Origin: a phage
Length of the DNA stretch: 49,912 nucleotides
Sequence record: OZ335956.1
Reading direction: 5' to 3' (one strand)
The first letter of the stretch is position 1. Each line of letters begins with the position of its first letter. Positions 19,560-49,873 of this stretch are shown here, one piece after another. The translations under genes were made by a program, and so were the position numbers. Under the pieces are notes generated by a model, which worked only from the letters and a program-made list of their open reading frames with translations, made no database searches and had not been told where the DNA came from.

Positions 19560-20591
19560 AATACATGTTTGGAGTGAAAGGAATTGGCATTGAAATGTTT
19601 ATGTTGAATGGGAATTGAGCGCCGCTCTGAGTAGAATAGTTACCTACCATCGTTCCTGGTGCGCTTCTAACGTTACCTCCGCTCATGCACACGCCCTTGT
19701 ATCGGATGTTATTATATCCACCTGTAACCCTGCATATTGTGCCAGTTCTCAGTATTGGGAAAAATCCACCGCACCACTGCCAGCCGTCATTTATCGCCAT
19801 AGTCCCGCCGAGAACGAAGGGGCGTCTAACGCTTGAGAAAACGATCTGACCAGCGGGATTGCTCATAGTAATTCCCGGTCCTGGAGGTGGTGGAGTGTTA
19901 TTAAATATTACGAGTTGCACGTATACGCTCGCGCCAACGTCATCAATCCCGTTATAGTTTGCATCCCTACACCATATAGTATTTCCGTCAGATTCAAGTG
20001 TTACGTTTGGGTTATCCCACATACCGAAAGGAACGCCCTGGACTGGCAATTGAGCCTGACCGTTAACCTGGATGCCTCCAACAAATGCGGCACTCATCAA
20101 CCTTGCGTTATTCGGTATCGCTGCGAAGTTGGTTGAATCGTTGACAAGTATCCCCTGATTTCCTGCCTGAGCGGGGAGAATTTCGTAACAGTTGCCATAA
20201 AATCTCATCCTTCTTCCACCGTGACCGTTAAAATTCCCTACCGTTATTCGCCCGGTTGAATCATTAACCTTCTGAAAGCTGGTTAAATAATACACCTCAG
20301 GAATATAATATTCCCTACCGTTATTCGCCCGGTTGAATCATTAACCTTCTGAAAGCTGGTTAAATAATACACCTCAGGAATATAATTCATGTCGTCTATG
20401 TAGATGGACTGAGATGGAAGGCAAAAAGCAGTAGATCCAGGACTCATTTGCAGACCAAAATCAAAAACCGATCCCGATGAGTCAACGCCGTCCGCTTGTA
20501 TTGGTCCGCACCATGACGGTGCGCGAAGCCCCGAGGTTATCTCCATTGCCGGACGACCGTCATTTAAGTTTATGTATATTCCTTGTCCCAT
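19558..20591 (-). pseudogene. putative receptor-binding protein gene, frameshifted by a 77-bp tandem duplication
   Basis: two - strand ORFs (20283..20600 and 19558..20295) both contain YYLTSFQKVNDSTGRITVGN; removing one 77-bp copy restores a single 966-nt (321-aa) Gly/Asn-rich ORF. Confidence 0.55.
20233..20386. repeat. perfect tandem duplication, 2 x 77 bp
   Basis: 20233-20309 and 20310-20386 are identical on direct comparison; 77 is not a multiple of 3. Confidence 0.9.
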
Positions 20592-23184: not shown

Positions 23185-23598
23185 ATGCATATTATCACTG
23201 GCGAGATCCGAAAAGAACCTAAGATTCTTGAACGTAACGGAGGCAATACTTATATTATTGAACTGGCAGAGAGTTACAAGCCGCGTGATGGCGATCGAGA
23301 ATACACCAACTATACATTCTTTTTCAGCGATGGTGGGAAGCCCGGACTTGCTGATTGGTATCGTGAAGCGTTCCAGGTTGGTCGCGTCGTATCAGTATCG
23401 TGCGAGACGTTGAAGATCTCATCCCGCGAGCACAACGGAACGGTTTACAATTCATTGCAGGCGGCTGATTTTCCTAAGTTGATATTCAGCCAACGAGGAC
23501 AAAGCAACCAACAACGAGCGCCACAGCAACAACAGCGAACGCAATCACATCAACAGCCAAATCCTCAATCAACTTTCGACGATGATATCCCGTTCTAA
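23185..23598 (+). CDS. ssb: single-stranded DNA-binding protein
   Basis: 137 aa; Q/P-rich linker and C-terminal DDDIPF, the hallmark acidic SSB tail. Confidence 0.8.
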   Translation: MHIITGEIRKEPKILERNGGNTYIIELAESYKPRDGDREYTNYTFFFSDGGKPGLADWYREAFQVGRVVSVSCETLKISSREHNGTVYNSLQAADFPKLIFSQRGQSNQQRAPQQQQRTQSHQQPNPQSTFDDDIPF

Positions 23599-27058: not shown

Positions 27059-29071
27059 ATGAACATCAAAAAGCAGATTGCATTACTTGGCGAGGACTAC
27101 ATAAAACGCACTCAGGAGCGATTCACTGTTGGTGAGGTCGTTCCGTATCCGTATCAGGTTGTTGCTTATGCTGAGATAGCGAAGCGCCTGTCAAATTATG
27201 ATCATCCATTCTTCGTTAAAGCGTCAGTATCTGCGGGTAAGACAATCATTTTTGCTATGGTTGCAAAACAGTGTCAGAAAATGGGGTTAAAAATGCTTGT
27301 GCTGGCACGCCAGGGTGAGATTGTCGATCAGGATAGCGAAGAGATCGACAACTTCGGTGTGACTAACTCTATCTTCTCAGCGTCACTTGGAATAAAATCT
27401 TGCTACTTCCCGATCGTGGTTGGCTCTGAGGGTACTGTTGCAAACGGCCTCAATAATGAGTTGGCTGATTTTGTCCCGCATGTAATAGGGATCGACGAAT
27501 GTCACCAGGTGGATTGGGAAGACCTCGCGCAAGCAATCGAAGGAAAGGAAACGATTGAGCAGATGAGGGGGGAGAAAGGGAAAGTTATCATGGAAGGGGA
27601 GATTCCTCTGATTGGTAATGATGGTAAGCCTCTTCTCGGAACTAAGCGAAGCCAGTACACGATCGTTATCATGGAGATGATGCGTCGCTGTAAAGAGGTT
27701 CACGGGCATGACCTAAGAATATTTGGTATGACGGGATCTGAATTTCGCGGCGTTGTTCCTATTCTTGTTGAGAACCCAAAGGCGTTAGGATTCTGGCGTG
27801 AGCGCGTTACTGATATTGACACAAACTACCTCATTGAGTTTGGTTCTGTCGTTCCGACGATATTCGGTTCAACTGACGGGGTTCATTACGATCTGGATAA
27901 GTTCAAGGCGTCGAGCGAGGACGGCGTGCAGGACTTTACAGAGAAAGATATGAAGGCGATGGAAGATGAAATCCTTCATGACAAATCTCTGACTCAGCGA
28001 ATCATGCAAATGGTCGCCAAAAAGGCTGAAGAACGCAACGCTGTTTTGATTACATGTGCCGGGGTTCGTCACTGTAAAGAGGCGGCGGCGGCACTTCCTC
28101 CGGGAAGCACCTATGCAATCATCACTGGAGATACAGACACCAAAACTCGCAAGAAGATTCTGGACGATGTGAGGGCCGGGAAGATTAAATACACCTTTCA
28201 GGTAATGGCTCTCACGACTGGCGTTAACGTTCCAAATTGGGATTTCAGCGTCATACTTCGTAAGATAGGATCACTCACGCTGTTGATTCAACTTTTGGGT
28301 AGGGGTATGCGACTGCTTAAATCATGGCAGGTAGCTGAAGGAATGGTCAAGCAAGATCATCTTGTATGGGATTTCGCTGGCACCATGGATGAGTTAGGCC
28401 AACTTTATTTCGATCCGATACTTGAGCAGGCTCAATTCCAGAAGCGTTTTGAAAACGGCAAAGACCCGAAAACGTGTCCGAAGTGTGGTTGCGTAAATAG
28501 CTTCTACGCTCGCCGATGCGTTAACGTTATCGACGGTGAGCGTTGTGATCATTTCTGGACTTCTCAGATTTGCGAGGACCAGGTGGATGAGCGTACCGGG
28601 AAAATCATTGTTAAAGGATGTGGTGCAGAGAATGACGTTGTTGCTCGCGTCTGCCGTTGCTGCGATGTTTCGCTTGTCGATCCTAACCTGAAGTTGTCAG
28701 GTAAAGCGTACACCAAGAATGACTGGTACGAGGTCAAGAATTTTGAGGTAACTCTAACCAAAAACCAAAAGGGCGTTATATACAAATACACACTGATTAA
28801 CGATGATGGCGATGAGTTCAAGGCGTATGAAAAATTCTTCCCTGAGTCCGACTCTAAGATTTGCGGTACGCTATGGAAAACGAAGGGTGTATTGCCTCAT
28901 GTGTCAGATCCTAAAATGCGTCGCTACTTTATCGGAATGAAGAACGCCATCAAGATCGTGCAGTACTCGCATCATATCGCTCATCCGGTACGTGTCACAC
29001 ACCGACGCAACCAGAAGAAGGAAGATATTATTTCACGTAAAGATTTCGGTATGGAGGATATCCCACAATGA
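27059..29071 (+). CDS. ATP-dependent helicase (superfamily 2)
   Basis: Walker A SAGKT, DEAH-like GIDECH, C-terminal Cys-rich zinc ribbons. Confidence 0.75.
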   Translation: MNIKKQIALLGEDYIKRTQERFTVGEVVPYPYQVVAYAEIAKRLSNYDHPFFVKASVSAGKTIIFAMVAKQCQKMGLKMLVLARQGEIVDQDSEEIDNFGVTNSIFSASLGIKSCYFPIVVGSEGTVANGLNNELADFVPHVIGIDECHQVDWEDLAQAIEGKETIEQMRGEKGKVIMEGEIPLIGNDGKPLLGTKRSQYTIVIMEMMRRCKEVHGHDLRIFGMTGSEFRGVVPILVENPKALGFWRERVTDIDTNYLIEFGSVVPTIFGSTDGVHYDLDKFKASSEDGVQDFTEKDMKAMEDEILHDKSLTQRIMQMVAKKAEERNAVLITCAGVRHCKEAAAALPPGSTYAIITGDTDTKTRKKILDDVRAGKIKYTFQVMALTTGVNVPNWDFSVILRKIGSLTLLIQLLGRGMRLLKSWQVAEGMVKQDHLVWDFAGTMDELGQLYFDPILEQAQFQKRFENGKDPKTCPKCGCVNSFYARRCVNVIDGERCDHFWTSQICEDQVDERTGKIIVKGCGAENDVVARVCRCCDVSLVDPNLKLSGKAYTKNDWYEVKNFEVTLTKNQKGVIYKYTLINDDGDEFKAYEKFFPESDSKICGTLWKTKGVLPHVSDPKMRRYFIGMKNAIKIVQYSHHIAHPVRVTHRRNQKKEDIISRKDFGMEDIPQ

Positions 29072-33563: not shown

Positions 33564-33964
33564 TGAAACTGAAGAAAACGTGCATTGCGATTGCATTGGC
33601 TTTTGGTGTTATTTCCCTATCCGGTTGCTCGACGGCATCTGCCCTGAGCGGTTTAATCGGATCTAAACCGGAAGTTACAGCACAAATCGGAGAGGAGAAC
33701 ACAAAGCAATTAGCAGGAGTAACCGCAAAATCCGAAGATAAGCGAGATGTTAAAGTTGATAAGTCCAATGTAGGAAAGATTGACTCTTCCTTGAAGAAGT
33801 CAATTGAAGTGTCAACCATTAAGGCTAACACGGTTAACGCTGAAAGCATCACAGTAACAAAACCGGAAAACTGGTACGATGCTATCGTTGGCTGGATTCT
33901 CGTTTTTATCGGTCTATTGCTGGTTTATTTTTCACTTCGTAAGGACGAAAAAAAGGAGGCTTAG
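33560..33964 (+). CDS. unimolecular spanin (lipoprotein with C-terminal transmembrane anchor)
   Basis: signal peptide with lipobox LSGC plus C-terminal transmembrane helix ([13 protein letters not shown]); same architecture and position as the T1 gp11 u-spanin. Confidence 0.65.
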
Positions 33965-33976
33965 CCTCCTTTGTTA
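33953..33976. terminator. bidirectional terminator between convergent lysis and leftward early genes
   Basis: GGAGGCTTAGCCTCC flanked by A-run and TTTGTTATTTG. Confidence 0.5.
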
Positions 33977-34085
33977 TTTGTACCTTTTGACGTGGAGTAG
34001 CAACTCACCTTCCTGATCGCAAAGATTGTGCTCACTGTCGTTGTTGGCCCTCATTGAAGTGAGCAACAGACTCAACAACCCTTGC

Positions 34086-34493
34086 TCAAATTCTTCTTTC
34101 GTAAGCTGGAGCCTTGCGCACAATTCGACGTTCCGATCTATCAACGTTTCTACGTTCGCTAAACAAGTCTTCATCACTCATTTCTCCAATGTGCATCATT
34201 TCCCATGTATATCGATTGTTGTAGCCATCAATACACATCAGCTTCATCATTACCGGGCGCTTAATCTTTCCCTTGCACCAGTAAAATCCATCTTTGCAAT
34301 CAAGATAACCCTCAGTTACACAGCGTGAGCAAAACTCCTTAGATAGCGCGCTTGTAAATTCACGGCGAGTCATCCCGGCGGCCTTAGCGAATCGCTCACT
34401 TTCCTTGTGGGCGTATATAAATTTCGCTATGTGCTGTCGGGTGTATTTGTCGTATCCTTCGCAGAACCGGAACAGATCTAAAAGAAGAAGCAT
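34086..34493 (-). CDS. hypothetical Cys-rich protein
   Basis: 135-aa ORF translationally coupled to upstream gene. Confidence 0.5.
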   Translation of the reverse strand: MLLLLDLFRFCEGYDKYTRQHIAKFIYAHKESERFAKAAGMTRREFTSALSKEFCSRCVTEGYLDCKDGFYWCKGKIKRPVMMKLMCIDGYNNRYTWEMMHIGEMSDEDLFSERRNVDRSERRIVRKAPAYERRI

Positions 34494-34497
34494 ATAA

Positions 34498-36066
34498 TTA
34501 ACCCATCAGTCGAGGATTGATGAAAACAATATCATCAATGCGGCAAGTGTAGTTCATCTCTTCGAGCGTGATCAGCAGACTGTCGATTCGCTCAGCTACC
34601 TTCTGCTGACCGTTGAACGGAGTAACGTTCCGACACTTCGCTACAATGCTATGAATCGGTGCGCGGCCTTTGTTCTTCTTCGCGATCTCAGTGATAACAT
34701 CAATCAGTTTACGGGATTCAGCCTCATCACCAGCATATCCGGCAGCACTGGCAGAAGAAAGATAAGTCCTGGAAAGCTCATTGAAAATCATAATCGCTTC
34801 CTGCATTGTTTCGAGATCAATCTCACGATTAGCTCGGTTCGGTGATTCACCCTCCCAATTCTTGATCGTGTGAAGAACTGAGGCGATACGCAGAGCGTGC
34901 TTATCGAACTTTCCGAGATGACCGCGCAGCATTGAGTGAGAGTATTTCCCCCCGGCGGCGAAATCCGGTTCCATAGCCTGACGCGCCAGGTTTAATTCAC
35001 GCATAGCATTACGGCTTACAGAGAGAACAACGTTTTCCTCCTTCATGATGTTATGCACGAGTCGATAATATTTGCTAACCAGTCCGCGATCGACTTCCTT
35101 ATACAGTGCATCACCATTTTCATCGCACAGAATACGAGTACCTAAAAGCGGTTCCTCACGAACTAACAAGAAGCGCTCAGATACACCGATACCTCGTTGG
35201 CCTGCGTCCATGATACCCTTGATTGTTTCATCCTGAGCAATTACGCAGATCGAACCTACCGGGCACAGGGACAAGTTATTGTCCTGGTTGGATCGAGCGA
35301 CCTCCATGTGGTTTTTATCCCACGCCTTAAGGATAAGTTCACTGTTGGATTTCTTATCTGAACCTCCATACGTCAGTCCAAGCAATGTATTGATTGCCGT
35401 TGCTTCATCAGAGATTACGGAGAAGTGACCTTGAACAGCCGCCACTTTCGCCAGACCTTCGGGTGTAGGATCTGATACCGCGAAAACAATATCAGCCATC
35501 TTCTTGATCTTCTCTTCCAGTTTCTCTTTGTCTTCGTACAGAGCCGCAGTCGTGTTACCCTTCTGGTCGTTCTTGATTTCCTTCTCAACCTGACGTAGCT
35601 GACTGGTTAAACGGATACGCTCCTTTTTGCGTTCTTCATTCAGTCGCTGAATCTCCGCGCGCATAGGAGTAATTGCCGCTGAGTTAATCGCTGATTTACC
35701 CGTTGACGGCGGCTGACTGATTACCATATAAAGCGCGGTCGGTTGTTCTTCGCCGTGATATTGCACCCAAAACTTCCCGAGCATCGCGGCTGAGATGCAA
35801 CCGATGAAATGAGCGTACGCAGACGAAACCGGGAACTGAACTGACTCAGCCTTCGCCTTTGCATATTCGAATACCAGGTTATCGCCACCTAACGAAATCA
35901 GCGGGAACTTATCGTTGCCGCTATTGATATCGATCGGGTCTTGCCAAAACGAAACTGAATCCCCATAACTGTTTTCACGAATTGCGATCGCCACCGGATT
36001 AACTCCAGTGCTATTGGCGATCTCAATAATCTGTTGGTAATTAAGTTTTGGCTTAATATTAAACAT
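34498..36066 (-). CDS. P-loop NTPase-like protein (putative replication or recombination ATPase)
   Basis: start MFNIKPK with RBS AAGGAG; Walker-A-like QPPSTGKSA; ~522 aa. Confidence 0.5.
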   Translation of the reverse strand: MFNIKPKLNYQQIIEIANSTGVNPVAIAIRENSYGDSVSFWQDPIDINSGNDKFPLISLGGDNLVFEYAKAKAESVQFPVSSAYAHFIGCISAAMLGKFWVQYHGEEQPTALYMVISQPPSTGKSAINSAAITPMRAEIQRLNEERKKERIRLTSQLRQVEKEIKNDQKGNTTAALYEDKEKLEEKIKKMADIVFAVSDPTPEGLAKVAAVQGHFSVISDEATAINTLLGLTYGGSDKKSNSELILKAWDKNHMEVARSNQDNNLSLCPVGSICVIAQDETIKGIMDAGQRGIGVSERFLLVREEPLLGTRILCDENGDALYKEVDRGLVSKYYRLVHNIMKEENVVLSVSRNAMRELNLARQAMEPDFAAGGKYSHSMLRGHLGKFDKHALRIASVLHTIKNWEGESPNRANREIDLETMQEAIMIFNELSRTYLSSASAAGYAGDEAESRKLIDVITEIAKKNKGRAPIHSIVAKCRNVTPFNGQQKVAERIDSLLITLEEMNYTCRIDDIVFINPRLMG

Positions 36067-36123
36067 CACAATGAACTCCTTAGTTGACGGTGTAAATGAT
36101 ACACCGCCAATGGTACACGCGTT

Positions 36124-36138
36124 TTGCAAAAAGTGCTA
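36124..36138. promoter_or_regulatory. palindromic motif site
   Basis: ttgcaaaaagtgcta (- strand reads atagcactttttgcaa). Confidence 0.5.
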
Positions 36139-36142
36139 TTAG

Positions 36143-36559
36143 TTATAAGTATTTGGCCTCAAAGGTTGTGCCGTCCGCGATGCTGAATCCAACCTCTTCG
36201 CGAAACAGCGTCCAGCGATATCCATCCTCATCAAAGATGTAGCCAGCCACTCCACCAAGCGCACGACCGCTTTCCACCTGGTAGCGCTTTCCAACCTTGA
36301 ATGATTTTTTCATGGGGTTGCGATGTTCAAGCCCGGTGCACTTTAGCGTCTTGGTTTTAAGTTCAGTGAACTTCGCGAAGTAGATTTCATCAGATCCGTG
36401 AATCTGTAATTCATCGTGTTTCTCAAGTTTTAAATACTTTCCGCATTTTAATTTAATTTCGCGAGTTCCGTCGTAACGCTCACGACCTTTATACAGATTG
36501 TTTACTTCGAAGCCTGTGATTTTTTCTGCGGAAGTGCATTTCAGTTTGATGGATTTCAT
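36143..36559 (-). CDS. hypothetical protein
   Basis: start MKSIKLK with leader accaatcaggag; 138 aa. Confidence 0.5.
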   Translation of the reverse strand: MKSIKLKCTSAEKITGFEVNNLYKGRERYDGTREIKLKCGKYLKLEKHDELQIHGSDEIYFAKFTELKTKTLKCTGLEHRNPMKKSFKVGKRYQVESGRALGGVAGYIFDEDGYRWTLFREEVGFSIADGTTFEAKYL

Positions 36560-36623
36560 TGCGCTCACTCCTGATTGGTTTTCTTGAATAAGGCCACTTT
36601 ATCAAATGACCTTACGGCAATAT

Positions 36624-36638
36624 TAACAAATCGTGCTA
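36624..36638. promoter_or_regulatory. palindromic motif site
   Basis: taacaaatcgtgcta; - strand module homologous to the one at 44093. Confidence 0.55.
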
Positions 36639-36639
36639 T

Positions 36640-36849
36640 TTACCAGGGAATATAATCTTCGTCGTCCTCATGAGTATCATCACCAGGTAACTCAAAATTG
36701 GGATCGTATTCGCTTTCGGCATCCATATCCATATTTCCCAAAGCCTCGTCAAGCGTAATTTCTTTATATGCAACCTTGATACACCATTCAGCACCAAGCC
36801 CGGCATCAAGAGCGGCAAAATAACGAGTCCAGAAATTATCCTGTTCCAT
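36640..36849 (-). CDS. small acidic protein with SSB-tail-like C-terminus
   Basis: 69 aa; ends GDDTHEDDEDYIPW. Confidence 0.5.
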   Translation of the reverse strand: MEQDNFWTRYFAALDAGLGAEWCIKVAYKEITLDEALGNMDMDAESEYDPNFELPGDDTHEDDEDYIPW

Positions 36850-36853
36850 TAAA

Positions 36854-37078
36854 TTAACTCCATGAATTAATGTAAATTGAGTTAGCCTCAAGCGTTGCGC
36901 GGACGTCGGCATCTGTTGCATTTACTAAGCGCGAGCCTGGCGTGCTGCCAATAACGTTATTACCGTTGCGAGTTTTAGTTACCGTCATTGAAATAAAACC
37001 GGAAGACTTATCCATTTTAATAACTACACGACCTTTAGCGTTCAGGTGCTTGATGATATTCTCAACTTTAATGCTCAT
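36854..37078 (-). CDS. hypothetical protein
   Basis: start MSIKVEN with RBS AAGGAA; 74 aa. Confidence 0.5.
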   Translation of the reverse strand: MSIKVENIIKHLNAKGRVVIKMDKSSGFISMTVTKTRNGNNVIGSTPGSRLVNATDADVRATLEANSIYINSWS

Positions 37079-37140
37079 TTCTAATTCCTTTGTTTCGTTT
37101 GGTGTGGGAGTAATATATATCACTCCCGATTGTATGTCTT

Positions 37141-37155
37141 TAGCAATTCGTGCTA
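37141..37155. promoter_or_regulatory. palindromic motif site, perfect TAGCA-N5-TGCTA
   Basis: tagcaattcgtgcta. Confidence 0.55.
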
Positions 37156-37295
37156 TCAGTACTCAGAAATTACTTTGCACTCTTTGATTGTTCCACCCAA
37201 AACTACTTTCTGCATCATTGCTTTTTGGTGGCTATCGTAAACGCGAACATTTTTTACGCTATTAAATTTACCCGTATAGAAGGTGTGAATATAAA

Positions 37296-37616
37296 TCATT
37301 TTTTACCGTCCCACGTTTGATATGCTGTAACCAGGTTGATGCTATGGTCGAACTCGTCAATGCTCAGCGATCCGATTCGAACCAGTTCTTTGTCATGCTT
37401 AATATCAATCATCCGGCTATATGGATGACCTGGCACATATTTAAATAGTCTCTTGCTGTCGGCAATATCAGCGTTGATTCCATAGAATCGGCCTACTGCC
37501 GCCTTCACGCGTTCCATGATGTTTTTTTCGTGGATTGCAGCCGCGTTATTCAATGCCGCGACAGTGCTCCCGTTAATCTTCGGTGACTTGGTTGTGATCT
37601 TGTAAGTGTGGTTCAT
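37296..37616 (-). CDS. hypothetical protein
   Basis: start MNHTYKI with RBS AGGGGG; 106 aa. Confidence 0.5.
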   Translation of the reverse strand: MNHTYKITTKSPKINGSTVAALNNAAAIHEKNIMERVKAAVGRFYGINADIADSKRLFKYVPGHPYSRMIDIKHDKELVRIGSLSIDEFDHSINLVTAYQTWDGKK

Positions 37617-37632
37617 TATTCCCCCTAACCGT

Positions 37633-37833
37633 TCAGGATAGCTTTTGTGCTTCGTAAATGATAACAGGTTCAAGACGTTCAAGTCGAACGCGGAACGTGT
37701 TCATGAATCCTTCGTTGTTCTTCAGCGATTCGAAGGCGTCTGTAGCTTCGATTGCGCTATCCCCCATGTAGGCAACTACGCTCTTTTGCGTCTCTCGCGA
37801 GATCGCAACAACTCGGTAGATATAATCACTCAT
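37633..37833 (-). CDS. hypothetical protein
   Basis: start MSDYIYR with RBS AAGGAGG; 66 aa. Confidence 0.5.
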   Translation of the reverse strand: MSDYIYRVVAISRETQKSVVAYMGDSAIEATDAFESLKNNEGFMNTFRVRLERLEPVIIYEAQKLS

Positions 37834-38197
37834 ACAATGCCTCCTTAACACGATCCGCAATGCAGGAGTTTACGGTGATTGAGTAGTTCGCCACTCCCCA
37901 CAGTGCAATATTTCCTAACTCAGTGCGCATAGATGGATTGTTAAGCTGAATGATTGTTTCTCCAGTATCGTTATCGACGAAGCGAGATACTCCTAAATGG
38001 TCCACCACGCGCGTTACTCTGTTCACACACTCCATTGCATCACTTACACCATAATAGGCGCTCAGAGCGGCTCTCACAGCCTTCTCTTGCTTGTTGTAAA
38101 TCTTGCGCGCGATGTTATCGATCGCTACGTGCTCTTTCTCGTCAGTCTGGATTGCCGTGCTTGCTGTGAAGTCCAGGTCAGTGAACTGCTTAAACAT
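37826..38197 (-). CDS. hypothetical protein
   Basis: start MFKQFTD with RBS GAGGAAA; 123 aa. Confidence 0.5.
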   Translation of the reverse strand: MFKQFTDLDFTASTAIQTDEKEHVAIDNIARKIYNKQEKAVRAALSAYYGVSDAMECVNRVTRVVDHLGVSRFVDNDTGETIIQLNNPSMRTELGNIALWGVANYSITVNSCIADRVKEALYE

Positions 38198-38255
38198 GAT
38201 TCTTTCCTCATTTGCTGTTGATGGGATGACTATACCAGCCATCCCGGATGCGCGT

Positions 38256-38270
38256 TTAGCAATTCGTGCT
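38256..38270. promoter_or_regulatory. palindromic motif site, perfect TAGCA-N5-TGCTA
   Basis: tagcaattcgtgcta. Confidence 0.55.
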
Positions 38271-38271
38271 A

Positions 38272-38607
38272 TTAAGCAATATCGAACTCAGCGGCATATG
38301 CTTCCTTGAAGCCAGCTTCACGCATGGTGCGCTTGCTGATTTTGCGCTGGAATTTGTACTGGCTGTTAGGCATAACCCACCAGAAGCAGGCAGTTTCACG
38401 AACGATTTCATATTTACCGTAACGGGTGAAGGTGTCGCGTTCCATATCCGGCTGATTTACACAGGTCAGGAATTTAGCTGCCTTGTCTTCAGTTTTGATT
38501 TCTTCCCACACGAAGGAATCCATACCGTTAACCTTGCAAGCTACCATGATGTACTCAACGCCGTTTTCGATTTTGATGATTTCGTTACCGCGATTTTCGT
38601 ATTTCAT
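38272..38607 (-). CDS. hypothetical protein
   Basis: 111 aa with leader caggaacaggaaaATG. Confidence 0.5.
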   Translation of the reverse strand: MKYENRGNEIIKIENGVEYIMVACKVNGMDSFVWEEIKTEDKAAKFLTCVNQPDMERDTFTRYGKYEIVRETACFWWVMPNSQYKFQRKISKRTMREAGFKEAYAAEFDIA

Positions 38608-38672
38608 TTTCCTGTTCCTGATGTGTATCTCGTTTCGATGAGGTAATTATGCCAAATCACACCGATCGAGTT

Positions 38673-39377
38673 TTAACAAAAAGTGCTATTTGCGATCGCT
38701 TTGAAAAATCCCCTGGGTGATAGCGATCGTATCAGCTTGGTCTTTGCAGACTTGCCGCCCAGCTTGTTCTGCTGCGCAGAGTACCCGTCAGGCAGATTTA
38801 CTGGTTTTCTCTCCGGCATGACAAAGTCATCCGAGGTCCACAGGCACGTCTTCTTCGGGTAAGCATCGCGCGGCGCAATATACATCGGGAACCAGGGGTG
38901 TACGTCATTCTCCGGTAGATAGCCGCCATACTCCCAGGGGTCGAAAGTGTGGTCAGCTTTACGCCAGGCAGATGAAAGAACGCTCACCGGATTCTCAATG
39001 ATGTAAGTCACGCCCAGGCTATCGCCAATGTTCGCAGCAATCCGGGCGGTGGCAACAGCTTTCTCCTGGAATAGCGGATCACGTTCACGCTTGCTGGCAA
39101 AATGACGAGCGCCGCTAACAGCCAGGTCAGTGCACGGCGGGAATGCCATAATGAAATCCGGCTTGCCATACACACCCGCGATCGCATCTCGCTCGAACTT
39201 CTCACCAATGAAGACGTTCACATACTCAATATTCGGATGCTCCACCCGGGCATTGTGCTTTGCATAATCTCCGTGATCGGCTCCGTCAAAGTTGAAGCAC
39301 ATCACCTTATAGCCTTGCTTTGCCAGTTCATGACCAGCCAGGCCGGAACCGTCGAATAGTGACCAGATTAATTTCAT
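38673..39377 (-). CDS. compact DNA (cytosine-5)-methyltransferase-like protein (putative)
   Basis: 234 aa; motif I-like LFDGSGLAG, motif IV-like FPPCTDLAVSG, motif VI-like IENPVS. Confidence 0.45.
   Translation of the reverse strand: MKLIWSLFDGSGLAGHELAKQGYKVMCFNFDGADHGDYAKHNARVEHPNIEYVNVFIGEKFERDAIAGVYGKPDFIMAFPPCTDLAVSGARHFASKRERDPLFQEKAVATARIAANIGDSLGVTYIIENPVSVLSSAWRKADHTFDPWEYGGYLPENDVHPWFPMYIAPRDAYPKKTCLWTSDDFVMPERKPVNLPDGYSAQQNKLGGKSAKTKLIRSLSPRGFFKAIANSTFC
38674..38688. promoter_or_regulatory. palindromic motif site
   Basis: taacaaaaagtgcta. Confidence 0.55.
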
Positions 39378-39413
39378 TTGTTGCATTCTCCTGATTAACC
39401 TTATCGCTTACCC

Positions 39414-39539
39414 TTATCGCTTACCCTGACCGTTGCAAGCCGGACACGTGATTCGCTGCATTGTCCAGACTCCAGTGAATAAAGGAACCAGGGTAAATCC
39501 ACGACCAGCGCACTGACTACAAACCTGTTTAACTTTCAT
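39414..39539 (-). CDS. zinc-ribbon mini-protein (41 aa)
   Basis: CSQC...CPAC pairs; leader caaccaatcagaagaggaag matches the module leader. Confidence 0.4.
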   Translation of the reverse strand: MKVKQVCSQCAGRGFTLVPLFTGVWTMQRITCPACNGQGKR

Positions 39540-39602
39540 TGCTGCTTCCTCTTCTGATTGGTTGATGTGATGAATCATACCCTGCCAACCTGGTCCAGTC
39601 GT

Positions 39603-39617
39603 TAGCAAAAAATGCTA
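39603..39617. promoter_or_regulatory. palindromic motif site, perfect TAGCA-N5-TGCTA
   Basis: tagcaaaaaatgcta. Confidence 0.55.
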
Positions 39618-40226
39618 TTCCAATAATTGCTTATTATTCCATCAATGCTGGAATAGGTGGAATAATTTTGATTCCGATTGATTGCAAATGATGAAACATG
39701 ATTATTGCATGGTGTGCAACAGTTGGTTGATTTATTGCTGAGATTACAATGATTGTGAGAGGGAGGATCTAGTGTTACCCGGTTCGCCTGGTAGTCATCT
39801 CCATTTTTAGCAAAAAGTGCTACCGATTACACTTTAACTTGTCACTGCTGTAATATTTGTCTAGAATCACACTTGTGACAAAATTACGCACTGTGACACC
39901 TCACAATATACATATAGATATATGTATCTATATAATATATATAGTATTTTTTTTATTTATATATATAGATAATTATATTGTAATAATTGTGTATAGTTGT
40001 CTTACATTGTCTAGCGTACTGTTGGCATATTTCTATCTGCATGTTTATATATACAGTACTTTTTTGAGAGCTATATATTTCTATATGGACTCTAGACAGC
40101 TAGACAAATGTTACACGGCTTAAAATCGGCTTGCAGGCATTGACAACTCTACGTCGCGCTGTCACAATGGCAATTGTTGACACGTTATGACGCCATTTAC
40201 ACGCAAATAGACAAAGAGGATATATT
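39618..40226. promoter_or_regulatory. AT-rich divergent control region (candidate origin or early promoter cluster)
   Basis: non-coding; five GGAAT/ATTCC repeats at 39617-39675; sigma70-like TTGTCA-17-TAGAAT at 39839-39867; palindrome ATAGATA-tatg-TATCTAT; imperfect palindrome TGTCACAAT..ATTGTTGACA near 40160-40185. Confidence 0.5.
39808..39822. promoter_or_regulatory. palindromic motif site, perfect TAGCA-N5-TGCTA
   Basis: tagcaaaaagtgcta. Confidence 0.55.
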
Positions 40227-46269: not shown

Positions 46270-46803
46270 ATGGATAAAATTACAATTTGGGGTCAGACTA
46301 TCAACCTGTTTCTCGGCACGCGTCGAGTTGCAATCTTTGACTTCGACGGAACACTGAGCGACGGATCTGGTAGACTTCACCTGCTACCGACAAAGGATTT
46401 GCACTTGACTGAAAGCTGGTCCGAGTTTAACCGCGCGGCAATATTTGACAACCCTATCCAAAGCACGATCGATGTGATGAACTCTATGTTTGCAGCTGGT
46501 TATCATGTGATCATTTTAACCGGGCGAAGCGATGAGGTGCGTTACGCATCTGAGTTATGGCTTAAGCATCACGGCGCTCGATATGATTACTTAGTCATGC
46601 GACCGCACACTGACAACCGCAAAGACACGGTAATGAAAGAAGAGGCGGTGCGCGCGATCGGTATTGATAATATTCTGGCGGCCTGGGATGACTCACCTCA
46701 AATTATTCCATTACTCCGTTCGCTTGGAATAACCACTTACGCTGTAGTTGATTATGGCGATAAAGTTCACGATCATTTAAAATCTCACGGGGTAGATGAA
46801 TGA
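46270..46803 (+). CDS. HAD-family phosphatase (polynucleotide 3'-phosphatase-like)
   Basis: N-terminal DxDGT motif in FDFDGTLSDG; leader caaccaatcagaggaataaatc. Confidence 0.6.
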   Translation: MDKITIWGQTINLFLGTRRVAIFDFDGTLSDGSGRLHLLPTKDLHLTESWSEFNRAAIFDNPIQSTIDVMNSMFAAGYHVIILTGRSDEVRYASELWLKHHGARYDYLVMRPHTDNRKDTVMKEEAVRAIGIDNILAAWDDSPQIIPLLRSLGITTYAVVDYGDKVHDHLKSHGVDE

Positions 46804-46910
46804 ACCTATACGAATTTATTGCAGCACATCCGGTATTGACGGTTATCATCCTGTTAATCATCAATCACACTATCATCAATGTGGCAAAATTATTTTTAGG
46901 GAGATACTAG
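46800..46910 (+). CDS. small hydrophobic peptide (36 aa, below track cutoff)
   Basis: ATG 46800 overlapping phosphatase stop; predicted transmembrane segment. Confidence 0.25.
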   Translation: MNLYEFIAAHPVLTVIILLIINHTIINVAKLFLGRY

Positions 46911-46911
46911 C

Positions 46912-47484
46912 ATGAAAACAGCTATCATTTTAAACGGCGCGCCGGGCGCTGGTAAGGACACTATCGGCGCAATCCTGGCTGACATTTACGATCACGTAGC
47001 TTTGCGCAGCTTCAAAGAGCCGATGTTTGAGATTGCTCGGGCAATACTTGGTGAAACTAACTACGAGTATTTCATGTTCTTGTATGAGGACCGTCGATAC
47101 AAAGAAGAGCCAGCATCTATCCTGAACGGTAAAAGCCCACGCCAGTTTATGATCTGGATTAGCGAAGAGGTAATCAAGCCACAGTTCGGCAATCGCTTCT
47201 TCGGTATGCGAGCGGAAAGTAAGGTGAAAGAGTCGTACTCCCTTTCGGTATTTACTGACGGTGGATTCAAAGATGAGATCTTGCAAATGATTGAAGGCGA
47301 TATCCAGGTAAAGCTATGTCGAATCCATCGCAACGGTTGCAACTTCGATAATGACAGTCGCGATTATATCTACCTGGATGATATGATCGGGGTCAACGGT
47401 TATCAGGAATGTGATTTCTTCTCTGTTGAGGGTCATCCTGAAATTACCGCTCAGCACATAGCCGCCACATTCATCAATAAATAG
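46912..47484 (+). CDS. P-loop nucleotide or polynucleotide kinase (putative)
   Basis: Walker A GAPGAGKDT near the N-terminus; RBS GGGAG. Confidence 0.6.
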   Translation: MKTAIILNGAPGAGKDTIGAILADIYDHVALRSFKEPMFEIARAILGETNYEYFMFLYEDRRYKEEPASILNGKSPRQFMIWISEEVIKPQFGNRFFGMRAESKVKESYSLSVFTDGGFKDEILQMIEGDIQVKLCRIHRNGCNFDNDSRDYIYLDDMIGVNGYQECDFFSVEGHPEITAQHIAATFINK

Positions 47485-47496
47485 CACGAATTGCTA
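47482..47496. promoter_or_regulatory. palindromic motif site, perfect, heading an early module
   Basis: tagcacgaattgcta followed by TGATATAGT. Confidence 0.55.
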
Positions 47497-47556
47497 AAGC
47501 GTCGGTGGGGTGATTTGATATAGTTACCTCATCGACAACGAAGAGAGAAAATCGAA

Positions 47557-47766
47557 ATGATGGTATCAACTGATAAGCTTTTCACTTGCACTAAAACTTC
47601 TGAAGTATTCGAACTTATCCATACTGATGATGGCGATTTCATGTATGACGGTTGCGACGCTTTCATTGAAGTGAAAGAAAGTGACTATGACGAAGGCGTT
47701 TATTATAATCCGGCAGTGAGCACTCAGTTTTTTACACCGATCGAAGAAGAAGGAGAAGGGGCATGA
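47557..47766 (+). CDS. hypothetical early protein
   Basis: 69 aa, acidic. Confidence 0.5.
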   Translation: MMVSTDKLFTCTKTSEVFELIHTDDGDFMYDGCDAFIEVKESDYDEGVYYNPAVSTQFFTPIEEEGEGA

Positions 47767-49036: not shown

Positions 49037-49264
49037 ATGACCATTTTTTTATCGATTCTTGCTGGTGTCGTTATTTTTGGTGCTGGTTTGTTTGCTGGCT
49101 TCGCACTTGTTGCGGCCGCAATTGCGATGGACGCGAAGGATAAGACTGGCGTATGGCTGACCTACTCACCTAAGAAGGACCAATGGGAAATGTTTGGCGA
49201 CTTTGCTCACTGCTACTCTAAAGCTCAGACCCACCCTAAAGGAATTAAGCGACGATTGTCGTGA
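49037..49264 (+). CDS. small membrane protein
   Basis: RBS AAGGAGA; N-terminal transmembrane helix (IFLSILAGVVIFGAGLFAGFALVAAAIA). Confidence 0.5.
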   Translation: MTIFLSILAGVVIFGAGLFAGFALVAAAIAMDAKDKTGVWLTYSPKKDQWEMFGDFAHCYSKAQTHPKGIKRRLS

Positions 49265-49271
49265 TAAACAC

Positions 49272-49297
49272 TAACCCGCTTCGGCGGGTTTTTTTAT
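49272..49297 (+). terminator. rho-independent terminator
   Basis: CCCGCTTCGGCGGG hairpin followed by T8. Confidence 0.65.
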
Positions 49298-49315
49298 GCC
49301 TGCAATATGGTAAAA

Positions 49316-49330
49316 TAGCACTAAATGTTA
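49316..49330. promoter_or_regulatory. palindromic motif site
   Basis: tagcactaaatgtta directly upstream of terminase small subunit RBS. Confidence 0.5.
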
Positions 49331-49348
49331 AACAAAGAGGATGTATTT

Positions 49349-49873
49349 ATGAGTGAACCTAAGAATGCTCCCGTAGTCCAGGGAGGTAATTTCAAAGAGC
49401 TATACAAGAAAAAGTTCGGCACTGTTCTTGCGAAGAACCGGGCAATGACGCCTGAGCAATTATTCGATCTATCAGTGAAGTACTTTGAATGGGCCGAAGA
49501 TAATGCGATTAAGGCGTCTGAGTCTGCCAGCTTCCAGGGTGGCGTTTACGAGTCACTTGTTCATAAACCTCGCGTCTTCACCTGGACCGGATACCGACTA
49601 TTCATCGGCGCAAGCGAGGCCGCGATCATTAAATGGAAGCGCGAGGAGGAATACAGTGAGGTTATGGAGTTCGTGGAATCCGTAATCAACGAGCAAAAAT
49701 TCCAACTTGCCGCCAACGGTGTTATTAACGCCTCCTTTATCGGTAAGGATTTAGGGATCGATAAGCCAGCTTCAATCAATATCGAAAACTCGGCAGCTTC
49801 CGCGTCGACCGCCGTCGCCACTACTGAGGACGCAATGAAAGAGGCAGTAAACAGCATTCTTGATATGCTTTAA
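49349..49873 (+). CDS. terminase small subunit (putative)
   Basis: ATG 49349 with RBS AAAGAGGA; 174 aa; immediately upstream of large terminase when the window is circularised. Confidence 0.55.
   Translation: MSEPKNAPVVQGGNFKELYKKKFGTVLAKNRAMTPEQLFDLSVKYFEWAEDNAIKASESASFQGGVYESLVHKPRVFTWTGYRLFIGASEAAIIKWKREEEYSEVMEFVESVINEQKFQLAANGVINASFIGKDLGIDKPASINIENSAASASTAVATTEDAMKEAVNSILDML

Follow-up and report, generated by a model that had tools for sequence, protein, structure and literature searches.

A conserved C-terminal tip resembling that of SSB on a small acidic protein of T1-like phages

The 69-amino-acid protein

[quoted passage not shown] The gene is a hypothetical CDS in the UP30 record and its product is labelled hypothetical everywhere; the orthologue in phage T1 is ST6 (YP_003939.1), with the C-terminus ...NEDVDDYIPW. 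The gene, the segments of its product and the gene encoding the phage SSB are located in the window as follows.

36640..36849, minus strand: coding sequence of the 69-amino-acid acidic protein, including the stop codon (36640..36642); orthologue of T1 ST6 (YP_003939.1), family phrog_9085
36736..36849, minus strand: N-terminal helical core, residues 1-38, with predicted helices at residues 6-16, 20-27 and 33-37
36712..36732, minus strand: acidic and Met-containing segment MDMDAES, residues 40-46, invariant family-wide, with M40, D41, M42 and E45 as the conserved residues
36655..36711, minus strand: acidic linker, residues 47-65, variable and predicted to be disordered, containing SE[YF]DP[ND]F, which recurs in several subfamilies
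36643..36654, minus strand: SSB-Ct-like tip, residues 66-69, YIPW-COOH, with the apparent family consensus D-x-I-P-[F/W]-COOH
23185..23598, plus strand: phage SSB, ending ...STFDDDIPF (PHROG SSB family phrog_44, E = 7.8e-23)

Translation of the reading frame gives MEQDNFWTRYFAALDAGLGAEWCIKVAYKEITLDEALGNMDMDAESEYDPNFELPGDDTHEDDEDYIPW. The protein contains 20 Asp and Glu residues and 3 Lys and Arg residues, which gives a net charge of -17, with -13 carried by the last 31 residues. The preliminary description of this DNA, made from the sequence alone, had reported a strongly acidic protein of 69 amino acids at 36640-36849 and a canonical tail on the phage SSB at 23185..23598, and both statements were borne out, the latter by the FDDDIPF ending and the phrog_44 match. 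The C-terminus of the 69-amino-acid protein reads ...HEDDEDYIPW and W69 is directly followed by the stop codon, so that the terminal aromatic residue has a free carboxylate.

The protein matches two phage protein families of unknown function, phrog_9085 (E = 1.2e-44, residues 1-69) and phrog_9323 (E = 6.9e-23, residues 1-47). No match to an SSB was obtained in Pfam, PHROGs or NCBIfam, and NCBIfam gave no match of any kind. An OB fold was looked for in Pfam, PHROGs, NCBIfam and the AlphaFold2 models and was absent, and the 69-amino-acid protein is therefore not an SSB. The Pfam family SbcC_Walker_B reached 15.9 bits against a cut-off of 27 and was set aside as sub-threshold noise. Profile searches of the PDB with the family, with a neighbouring 74-amino-acid protein and with a neighbouring 141-amino-acid protein found nothing significant.

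The terminal tip is rare in the genome and conserved in the family

The similarity of the C-terminus to an SSB tail, pointed out in the preliminary description, was confirmed by the position of the tip at the extreme end of the protein, by the Pro at -2 (the last residue being -1) and by the rarity of such endings in two genomes. In the window, 3 of the 540 stop-to-stop open reading frames of at least 40 amino acids end in [ILMFV]P[FWY]: the SSB, the 69-amino-acid protein and a spurious frame of 41 amino acids that sits inside a structural gene. Only the SSB (...PMDFDDDIPF) and the homologue of the 69-amino-acid protein end in this way in Citrobacter phage Reinasaurus, which belongs to another subfamily/genus.

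The tip is also retained among homologues. Y66, I67, P68 and W69 are each at least 90% conserved in 23 close homologues, and residues 53-65 are variable. The 121 sequences listed by a profile search of 5.8 billion proteins end in YIPW (67 sequences), GIPF (31), CFPF (12), CIPF (4), IPFW (2), CIPW (1) or CMPF (1), with three exceptions, one of which is a truncated, mis-annotated fusion. HMMER, run exhaustively over 1.8 billion cluster representatives, found distant short members ending in DQLPF, NNHLPF, EHVPF, DEIPF, DEIPW and CIPFW. To obtain tip statistics, the short family members were clustered at 70% identity, which gave 34 clusters. An [ILMFV]P[FW](W) ending is present in 29 of these and EPF or ISF in two more; the terminal residue is F or W in 31 clusters, Pro is found at -2 in 27 and at -3 in the three IPFW-type clusters, and Ile at -3 and D or E at -5 occur in 23 clusters each. 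Column entropy is 1.3, 1.1 and 1.8 bits at -1, -2 and -3, respectively, and 2.1-3.7 bits at positions -4 to -15. P68 is near-invariant in all three family alignments; it occupies the position mutated in E. coli ssb-113. In the UP30 protein, positions -5 to -8 are D, E, D and D but position -4 is Y, and in the family position -4 is C, E, Y or G. Together, the ending shared by 29 of the 34 clusters, the low entropy at -1 to -3 and the D or E at -5 point to D-x-I-P-[F/W]-COOH as the family consensus. The x-P-aromatic terminal tip is under strong purifying selection. A C-terminus that is not conserved in homologues had been named in the preliminary description as grounds for rejecting its proposal; instead, nothing in the C-terminal half is better conserved than the tip. 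Two metagenomic short members (P0100 and P0101) have another Cys-rich ending, CWLC...CDC followed by GEVK or GYWEA, and lack the IPF tip.

The strictly terminal position bears on the idea that the protein imitates a different host peptide. E. coli FtsZ has the conserved C-terminal peptide ...DYLDIPAFLRKQAD, and the D-Y-I-P-W of the UP30 protein resembles its D-Y-L-D-I-P-A-F, so a mimic of it might block ZipA, FtsA or MinC and stop host division. However, in FtsZ the motif lies internally, is spaced as IPAF and depends on the Leu after it, whereas the family consensus is strictly terminal, I-P-F-COOH. On the basis of motif spacing and position this was judged unlikely, and we give it next to no weight.

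The family combines a conserved N-terminal module with exchangeable tails

The N-terminal core of the family is characterised by the motif A-x-x-AGL-x-x-E-x-x-x-KVA-...-L-x-x-ALG, in which G17, L18, V26, A27, A36, L37 and G38 are invariant or nearly so, and the fuller consensus, extending into the acidic/Met segment, is A-x-x-AGL-N-x-E-W-x-x-KVA-(6)-L-x-x-ALG-x-MDMD-x-ES. Among 85 diverse sequences, G17, G38 and E45 are invariant and A13, L18, V26, A27, L33, A36, L37, M40 and D41 are conserved in at least 90%. AlphaFold2 models based on 28 and 85 sequences gave the same picture (mean pLDDT 61 and 63, about 70 for the core): three short helices (residues 6-16, 20-27 and 33-37) are followed by coil to the end of the protein, and the tail is not packed on the core.

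The C-terminal halves are unrelated between genera, with the N-terminal half still recognisable and the ending still alike. Three types of tail follow MDMD-ES, namely an acidic linker with YIPW (Tunavirus), KFDDGIPF, and a CxC-x5-7-CxxC knuckle. The Nouzillyvirus protein ends ...RLKFDDGIPF, the proteins of Tlsvirus and of a Klebsiella phage end ...CGCNFDPxCKRCFPF, and the Webervirus protein ends ...CGCTGEEGCRECIPFW. The knuckle type is the most diverse and has IPF, FPF or IPFW directly after the knuckle. The Cys4 knuckle is found in Tlsvirus, Webervirus and many metagenomic members and is absent from the UP30 protein, which has a single Cys (C23). Two metagenomic mosaics (P0059 and P0060) combine an N-terminal module of Webervirus or Nouzillyvirus type with the Tunavirus acidic tail, the junction lying at MDMDAES. 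These mosaics suggest recombination within the gene and, because they join a foreign N-terminal module to a Tunavirus tail, they show that the N-terminal and tail modules can be exchanged.

Long relatives of 133-309 amino acids are present in Vi01-like Ackermannviridae and in some other phages (for example Salmonella phage Vi01, NC_015296.1, 143574..144121). These proteins contain the core and MDMD, carry an extra N-terminus and lack the IPF tip; the MDMD segment is thus kept also in the absence of the tip. The core that they keep reads AGLN...ALGDMDMD-ES, the N-terminal addition is beta-rich and the C-terminus, which is conserved among them, reads GGEDDxTPPLEVxMAGGxxxWxYQNEKNAWLDSR (P0136, P0145, P0156 and P0158-P0161). 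Two other long relatives (P0148 and P0154) have a zinc-ribbon-like CxxC...CxxC end. The possibility that the extension arose by gene fusion with a homologue of the upstream 74-amino-acid neighbour was rejected (hhalign probability 0.4%). A protein of 5423 amino acids with 45 matched stretches (P0132) is repetitive and rich in Thr, Ala, Gly and Asp, and is most likely a compositional false positive. In Shigella phage vB_SsoS_008 (MK335533.1, ~49229..49438), a 98-amino-acid protein (P0064) consists of the C-terminal two-thirds of the upstream gene product and the core, and ends at MDMD. As DNA identity across the whole gene is 90%, P0064 probably reflects an indel, an error in sequencing or an artefact of annotation and not a real fusion.

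The variety of tails is relevant to two further explanations. According to the first, the tip would have no intermolecular role and would serve the protein's own fold, an oligomer interface, stability or degradation. The confidence of the AlphaFold2 models is low throughout, which leaves room for intramolecular packing or obligate oligomerisation. Against this, the tail is a free coil in both AlphaFold2 runs, the long variants fold without the tip, and the presence of the tip behind three unrelated linker types and in the mosaics is hard to square with a fixed partner in the N-domain. We therefore regard such a purely internal role as highly improbable.

According to the second explanation, which the preliminary description had put forward as an alternative, the protein would be a mimic of DNA. 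The acidic disordered tail would fill the OB-fold cleft of the host or phage SSB, or the site at which a protein of restriction or defence holds DNA; the tails of SSB, T7 gp2.5 and T4 gp32 occupy their own DNA-binding clefts intramolecularly. The charge of -17, concentrated in the last 31 residues, fits this idea, as do the location of the gene among small genes in a block that begins with a cytosine methyltransferase gene and the sensing of phage SSB or single-stranded DNA by several defence systems, such as Hna, retron-Eco8, AbpAB and DARNA. Ocr, ArdA, T7 gp5.9 and Ugi are folded acidic mimics that reproduce the shape and charge of DNA and thereby disable host DNA enzymes. They resemble the 69-amino-acid protein in being small and very acidic, in being encoded among small phage genes and in presumably acting by competition. 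They differ in that the 69-amino-acid family shows no homology to them and conserves a short terminal peptide that would imitate a protein tail, while acidity is not conserved: the charge of the Tlsvirus member is -8, and its tip is preceded by a Cys4 knuckle and K/R. The terminal tripeptide is conserved but the charge pattern is not, and no similarity to any known DNA-mimic family was found in sequence or fold. With its acidic part predicted to lack order and giving way to a Cys4 knuckle in most branches, the family fits DNA mimicry poorly, and we consider this explanation very unlikely.

The gene is widespread but accessory

Two further features lie directly upstream of the gene.

36858..36861, minus strand: ribosome-binding site GGAG, 8 nt 5' of the ATG and within the last codons of the upstream gene, as read from the sequence
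36854..37078, minus strand: upstream gene encoding 74 amino acids (phrog_4344), the syntenic neighbour in most genera and kept in Klebsiella phage KLPN1

The stop codon of the upstream gene and the ATG of the 69-amino-acid protein are 4 nt apart, and the two genes look translationally coupled. A 93-amino-acid reading from an upstream ATG found no support, as all homologues begin with MEQ or MxQD. A scan of 33800..39800 for promoter and terminator consensus sequences found fewer promoter-like sites than in shuffled sequence and was uninformative on expression timing.

The gene is part of a leftward block which runs from a Dcm-like (cytosine) methyltransferase gene through eight small genes to a DUF3987 helicase gene. 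A 141-amino-acid gene (phrog_2684) and the DUF3987 helicase gene follow it both here and in a distant metagenomic contig, where the order is a 72-amino-acid gene, the family member, a 143-amino-acid gene and the DUF3987 helicase gene. In Tlsvirus, Webervirus and Klebsiella phage vB_Kpl_K50, it is the methyltransferase gene that adjoins the family member instead. In T1 (NC_005833.1, 46085..46624), the HNH endonuclease gene ST8 lies between the DUF3987 helicase gene and the 141-amino-acid gene; it is absent from UP30 and the window. The 74-amino-acid neighbour has no family assignment; its best PDB profile match, the CBS-domain protein 3fhm, is not significant (E = 0.21), and a homologue search with it returned close relatives only. 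In Reinasaurus (L012, 38107..38328) this neighbour is annotated as 'putative polyribonucleotide nucleotidyltransferase'.

The family was found in ~500 sequenced Drexlerviridae genomes and all identified hosts are enterobacteria. In tblastn searches of phage records, the DUF3987 helicase was found in 901 records, compared to 461 for the family when the UP30 protein was used as a query and 503 with the Webervirus protein. The lower count for the family is not merely a matter of search sensitivity, because Klebsiella phage KLPN1 (NC_028760.1) keeps the neighbour gene together with the methyltransferase and the helicase and has an SSB that ends in GMDFDDDIPF, while neither an open reading frame containing the core motif nor another ending of the IPF type was found in its genome. 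At 46693..47615 of KLPN1, the homologue of the 74-amino-acid neighbour (gp68) is directly upstream of the Dcm-like methyltransferase gene (gp67), with the gene for the tip-bearing protein naturally missing. The record counts and its absence from KLPN1 therefore show that the gene is widespread but accessory and dispensable. It neither depends on nor is required by the neighbour gene or the annotated replication and recombination genes of KLPN1. Being accessory, the gene is more readily understood as a fitness factor directed at the host than as a core part of the replisome.

The phage encodes an SSB, an Erf-like annealing protein, a RecE-like exonuclease, a primase, a RadD-like helicase and the DUF3987 helicase. 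No DNA polymerase is annotated in its genome, and the phage therefore presumably relies on the host DNA polymerase. This gene set allows for an adaptor function, in which the N-terminal core would bind a phage protein (the DUF3987 helicase, the primase, Erf or the RecE-like exonuclease) or DNA, and the tip would tether it to a host reader of SSB tails, for example the chi subunit of the Pol III clamp loader. The phage supplies a helicase, a primase and an SSB whose tail is of the host type yet has no annotated polymerase, the gene lies in the operon of the DUF3987 helicase with the order kept in the distant metagenomic relative, and the build of the protein (domain, flexible linker and tip) is modular. 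A parallel exists in T7, where the gp4 helicase-primase and the gp2.5 SSB both have acidic C-terminal tails ending in Phe that bind the T7 DNA polymerase. As in UP30, a second phage protein that is not an SSB shares an acidic, aromatic-ended tail type with the SSB, and in T7 two proteins use one docking site. The T7 tails, however, bind the phage's own polymerase, whereas none is annotated in UP30, and the 69-amino-acid protein carries a host-type IPF tip on an accessory protein and not on an essential enzyme. The T7 SSB tail has been described to contact both the polymerase and the helicase/primase (bioRxiv 10.64898/2026.02.22.705581). Other genera place the gene beside the cytosine methyltransferase gene and not beside the helicase gene. 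About half of the Drexlerviridae records that carry the helicase are without the gene, and KLPN1 lacks it but keeps the neighbour and the annotated replication and recombination genes; an essential bridge is therefore not what it forms. We consider an adaptor function rather improbable.

The helicase annotated as RadD-like is encoded at 27059..29071 of the window (plus strand). As E. coli RadD itself binds the SSB tail, the phage RadD-like helicase is a candidate for reading the SSB tail as well as the tip of the 69-amino-acid protein.

The tip as a possible mimic of the SSB C-terminus

Compared to the E. coli SSB-Ct (MDFDDDIPF), the tip of the 69-amino-acid protein likewise forms the very end of the chain and follows an acidic, disordered stretch, with an aromatic last residue, Pro at -2, Ile at -3 and acidic residues upstream, D or E being present at -5 in most of the family. 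It is a variant tip, with W in place of F and Tyr in place of Asp at -4, and some relatives have a Cys4 knuckle or end in IPFW. The carrier also differs from SSB: it is a protein of 69 amino acids with a predicted three-helix core, and it has neither an OB fold nor a match to the SSB family.

The observation itself, an acidic protein with a conserved SSB-like tip, is real and robust. Its interpretation as an SSB mimic is a plausible inference, which came through the test of tip conservation that could have refuted it. Tentatively, and with somewhat less than even confidence, we propose that the tip docks into the SSB-tail pockets of genome-maintenance proteins of the host or the phage, either as a decoy or as a tether. 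SSB contacts many partners by way of the conserved motif DDDIPF (PMC5872125), and at least 17 partners are recruited by the acidic tip of nine residues (PMC10018359). The tip is also read by phage recombination proteins (PMC6393309). The anchor in DnaG's SSB-Ct pocket is formed by the terminal Phe with its carboxylate (PMC5872125). Indole-carboxylate fragments were among the hits of a screen on this pocket, one of them at ~1.1 mM, the strong end of the hits' 1-3 mM range, while N-acetyl-Phe was about two-fold weaker than two other hits (PMC5872125). Because indole-carboxylate fragments bind the DnaG pocket, a terminal Trp is plausibly acceptable in SSB-Ct pockets, by analogy. Synthetic SSB-Ct peptides and small-molecule blockers (PMC5872125) are comparable in their proposed occupation of the SSB-Ct pocket, the indole-carboxylate being similar to a C-terminal Trp; they are laboratory compounds, whereas the phage protein would be their natural counterpart, encoded by a phage and extended by a protein module. 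Docking is further consistent with the retention of the tip while the linker before it is exchanged (acidic, KFDDGIPF or Cys4 knuckle), and with the prediction of the tail as an unpacked coil at both alignment depths.

Several findings weigh against docking into SSB-tail pockets. Position -4 is Tyr, Gly or Cys and not Asp as in SSB. Many relatives have a Cys4 knuckle directly before the tip, and Tlsvirus has basic residues there (CKRCFPF), whereas SSB is acidic at this place. In the relatives that end in IPFW, the Phe is displaced from the free carboxylate which SSB-Ct pockets read. The model of the N-terminal domain is of low confidence (pLDDT 61-63). Furthermore, the N-terminal core and MDMD are the most conserved part of the family and are kept in the Ackermannviridae-type long variants that lack the tip; the tip is therefore not needed for the basic function of the family. 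Finally, a non-specific decoy would also compete with the tail of the phage's own SSB.

The departures from SSB could also mean that the tip docks in a pocket outside the SSB interactome, on another host or phage protein, its likeness to DDDIPF being convergent. The IPW, FPF and IPFW tips, the non-acidic position -4 and the Cys4 or basic contexts all deviate from SSB while the phage SSBs stay DDDIPF, and the variation looks like co-evolution with a genus-specific partner. On the other hand, the terminal position, the Pro at -2, the aliphatic residue at -3 and the D or E at -5 are jointly close to the SSB-Ct pattern. The identified hosts are all enterobacteria, in which SSB tips are DDDIPF and many proteins have matching pockets. 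We know of no other C-terminal-peptide recognition system with a D-x-I-P-[F/W] consensus. A convergent tip for an unrelated pocket is in our view rather improbable.

We favour, among the forms that docking into SSB-tail pockets could take, a targeted, bipartite competition, because a free decoy would also compete with the FDDDIPF tail of the phage and because the N-terminal module is conserved. The 69-amino-acid family protein would be a small modular protein, the last residues of which, D-x-I-P-[F/W] with the free carboxylate, imitate the tip of bacterial SSB. The tip would enter the pocket by which SSB-interacting proteins recognise ...DDDIPF-COOH, and the conserved N-terminal module would supply specificity or a second activity. 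The net effect that we consider most likely is that, during infection, SSB-coated single-stranded DNA would be closed to one or a few host enzymes that depend on SSB, with ExoI, RecJ, RecQ, PriA or a defence nuclease as candidate targets, and that replication and Erf/RecE-type recombination intermediates of the phage would thereby be protected. Single-stranded DNA exonucleases (3' and 5') and helicases that destroy Erf/RecE-type intermediates would be attractive targets, although this is speculation. The weakest step of the mechanism is its direction, that is, whether the protein would act as an inhibitor or as a tether.

A phage-encoded SSB-tail decoy or mimic, or functional work on the gene, was not found in the full-text literature, for which coverage of journals is incomplete. 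This agrees with the preliminary description, in which the function had not been recognised as a described one. Viral mimicry of short motifs would here be applied to the SSB hub, and a phage role of this sort has probably not been described before. The T1 ST6 family might even be the first known case of natural proteins that inhibit the SSB interactome of bacteria, acting via a mimic of the SSB tip that with Trp/Tyr perhaps out-binds it, and with an N-terminal module that targets particular host enzymes of repair, restart or defence; we consider this somewhat unlikely.

In bacteria, the SSB tip acts as the central signal that recruits replication, repair, recombination and restart enzymes, and it is an antibacterial drug target (PMC5872125, PMC10018359). 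If the tip is indeed an SSB-Ct mimic, it would represent a new viral way of rewiring or silencing the genome maintenance of the host, could account for the protection of recombination-dependent replication in T1-like phages, and would provide a ligand of natural origin and high affinity for SSB-tail pockets. A protein without an OB fold that ends in D-x-I-P-[F/W]-stop would then be a search signature for further factors. If the protein acts as an inhibitor, it would define a new class of host takeover or counter-defence by motif mimicry in phages and a natural lead for antibacterial peptides against the SSB hub. In either case, there is now a testable hypothesis for a classical T1 gene that has been 'hypothetical' since the genome was sequenced.

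Sequence differences between the window and UP30

Compared to OX638287.1, the window has a net gain of 77 bases, 4 single-nucleotide differences and one extra base at the record-end junction (window position 40226). About 81 bases of OX638287.1 (29915..29995, within a gene annotated as 'membrane protein') align twice, at 20229..20390 of the window.

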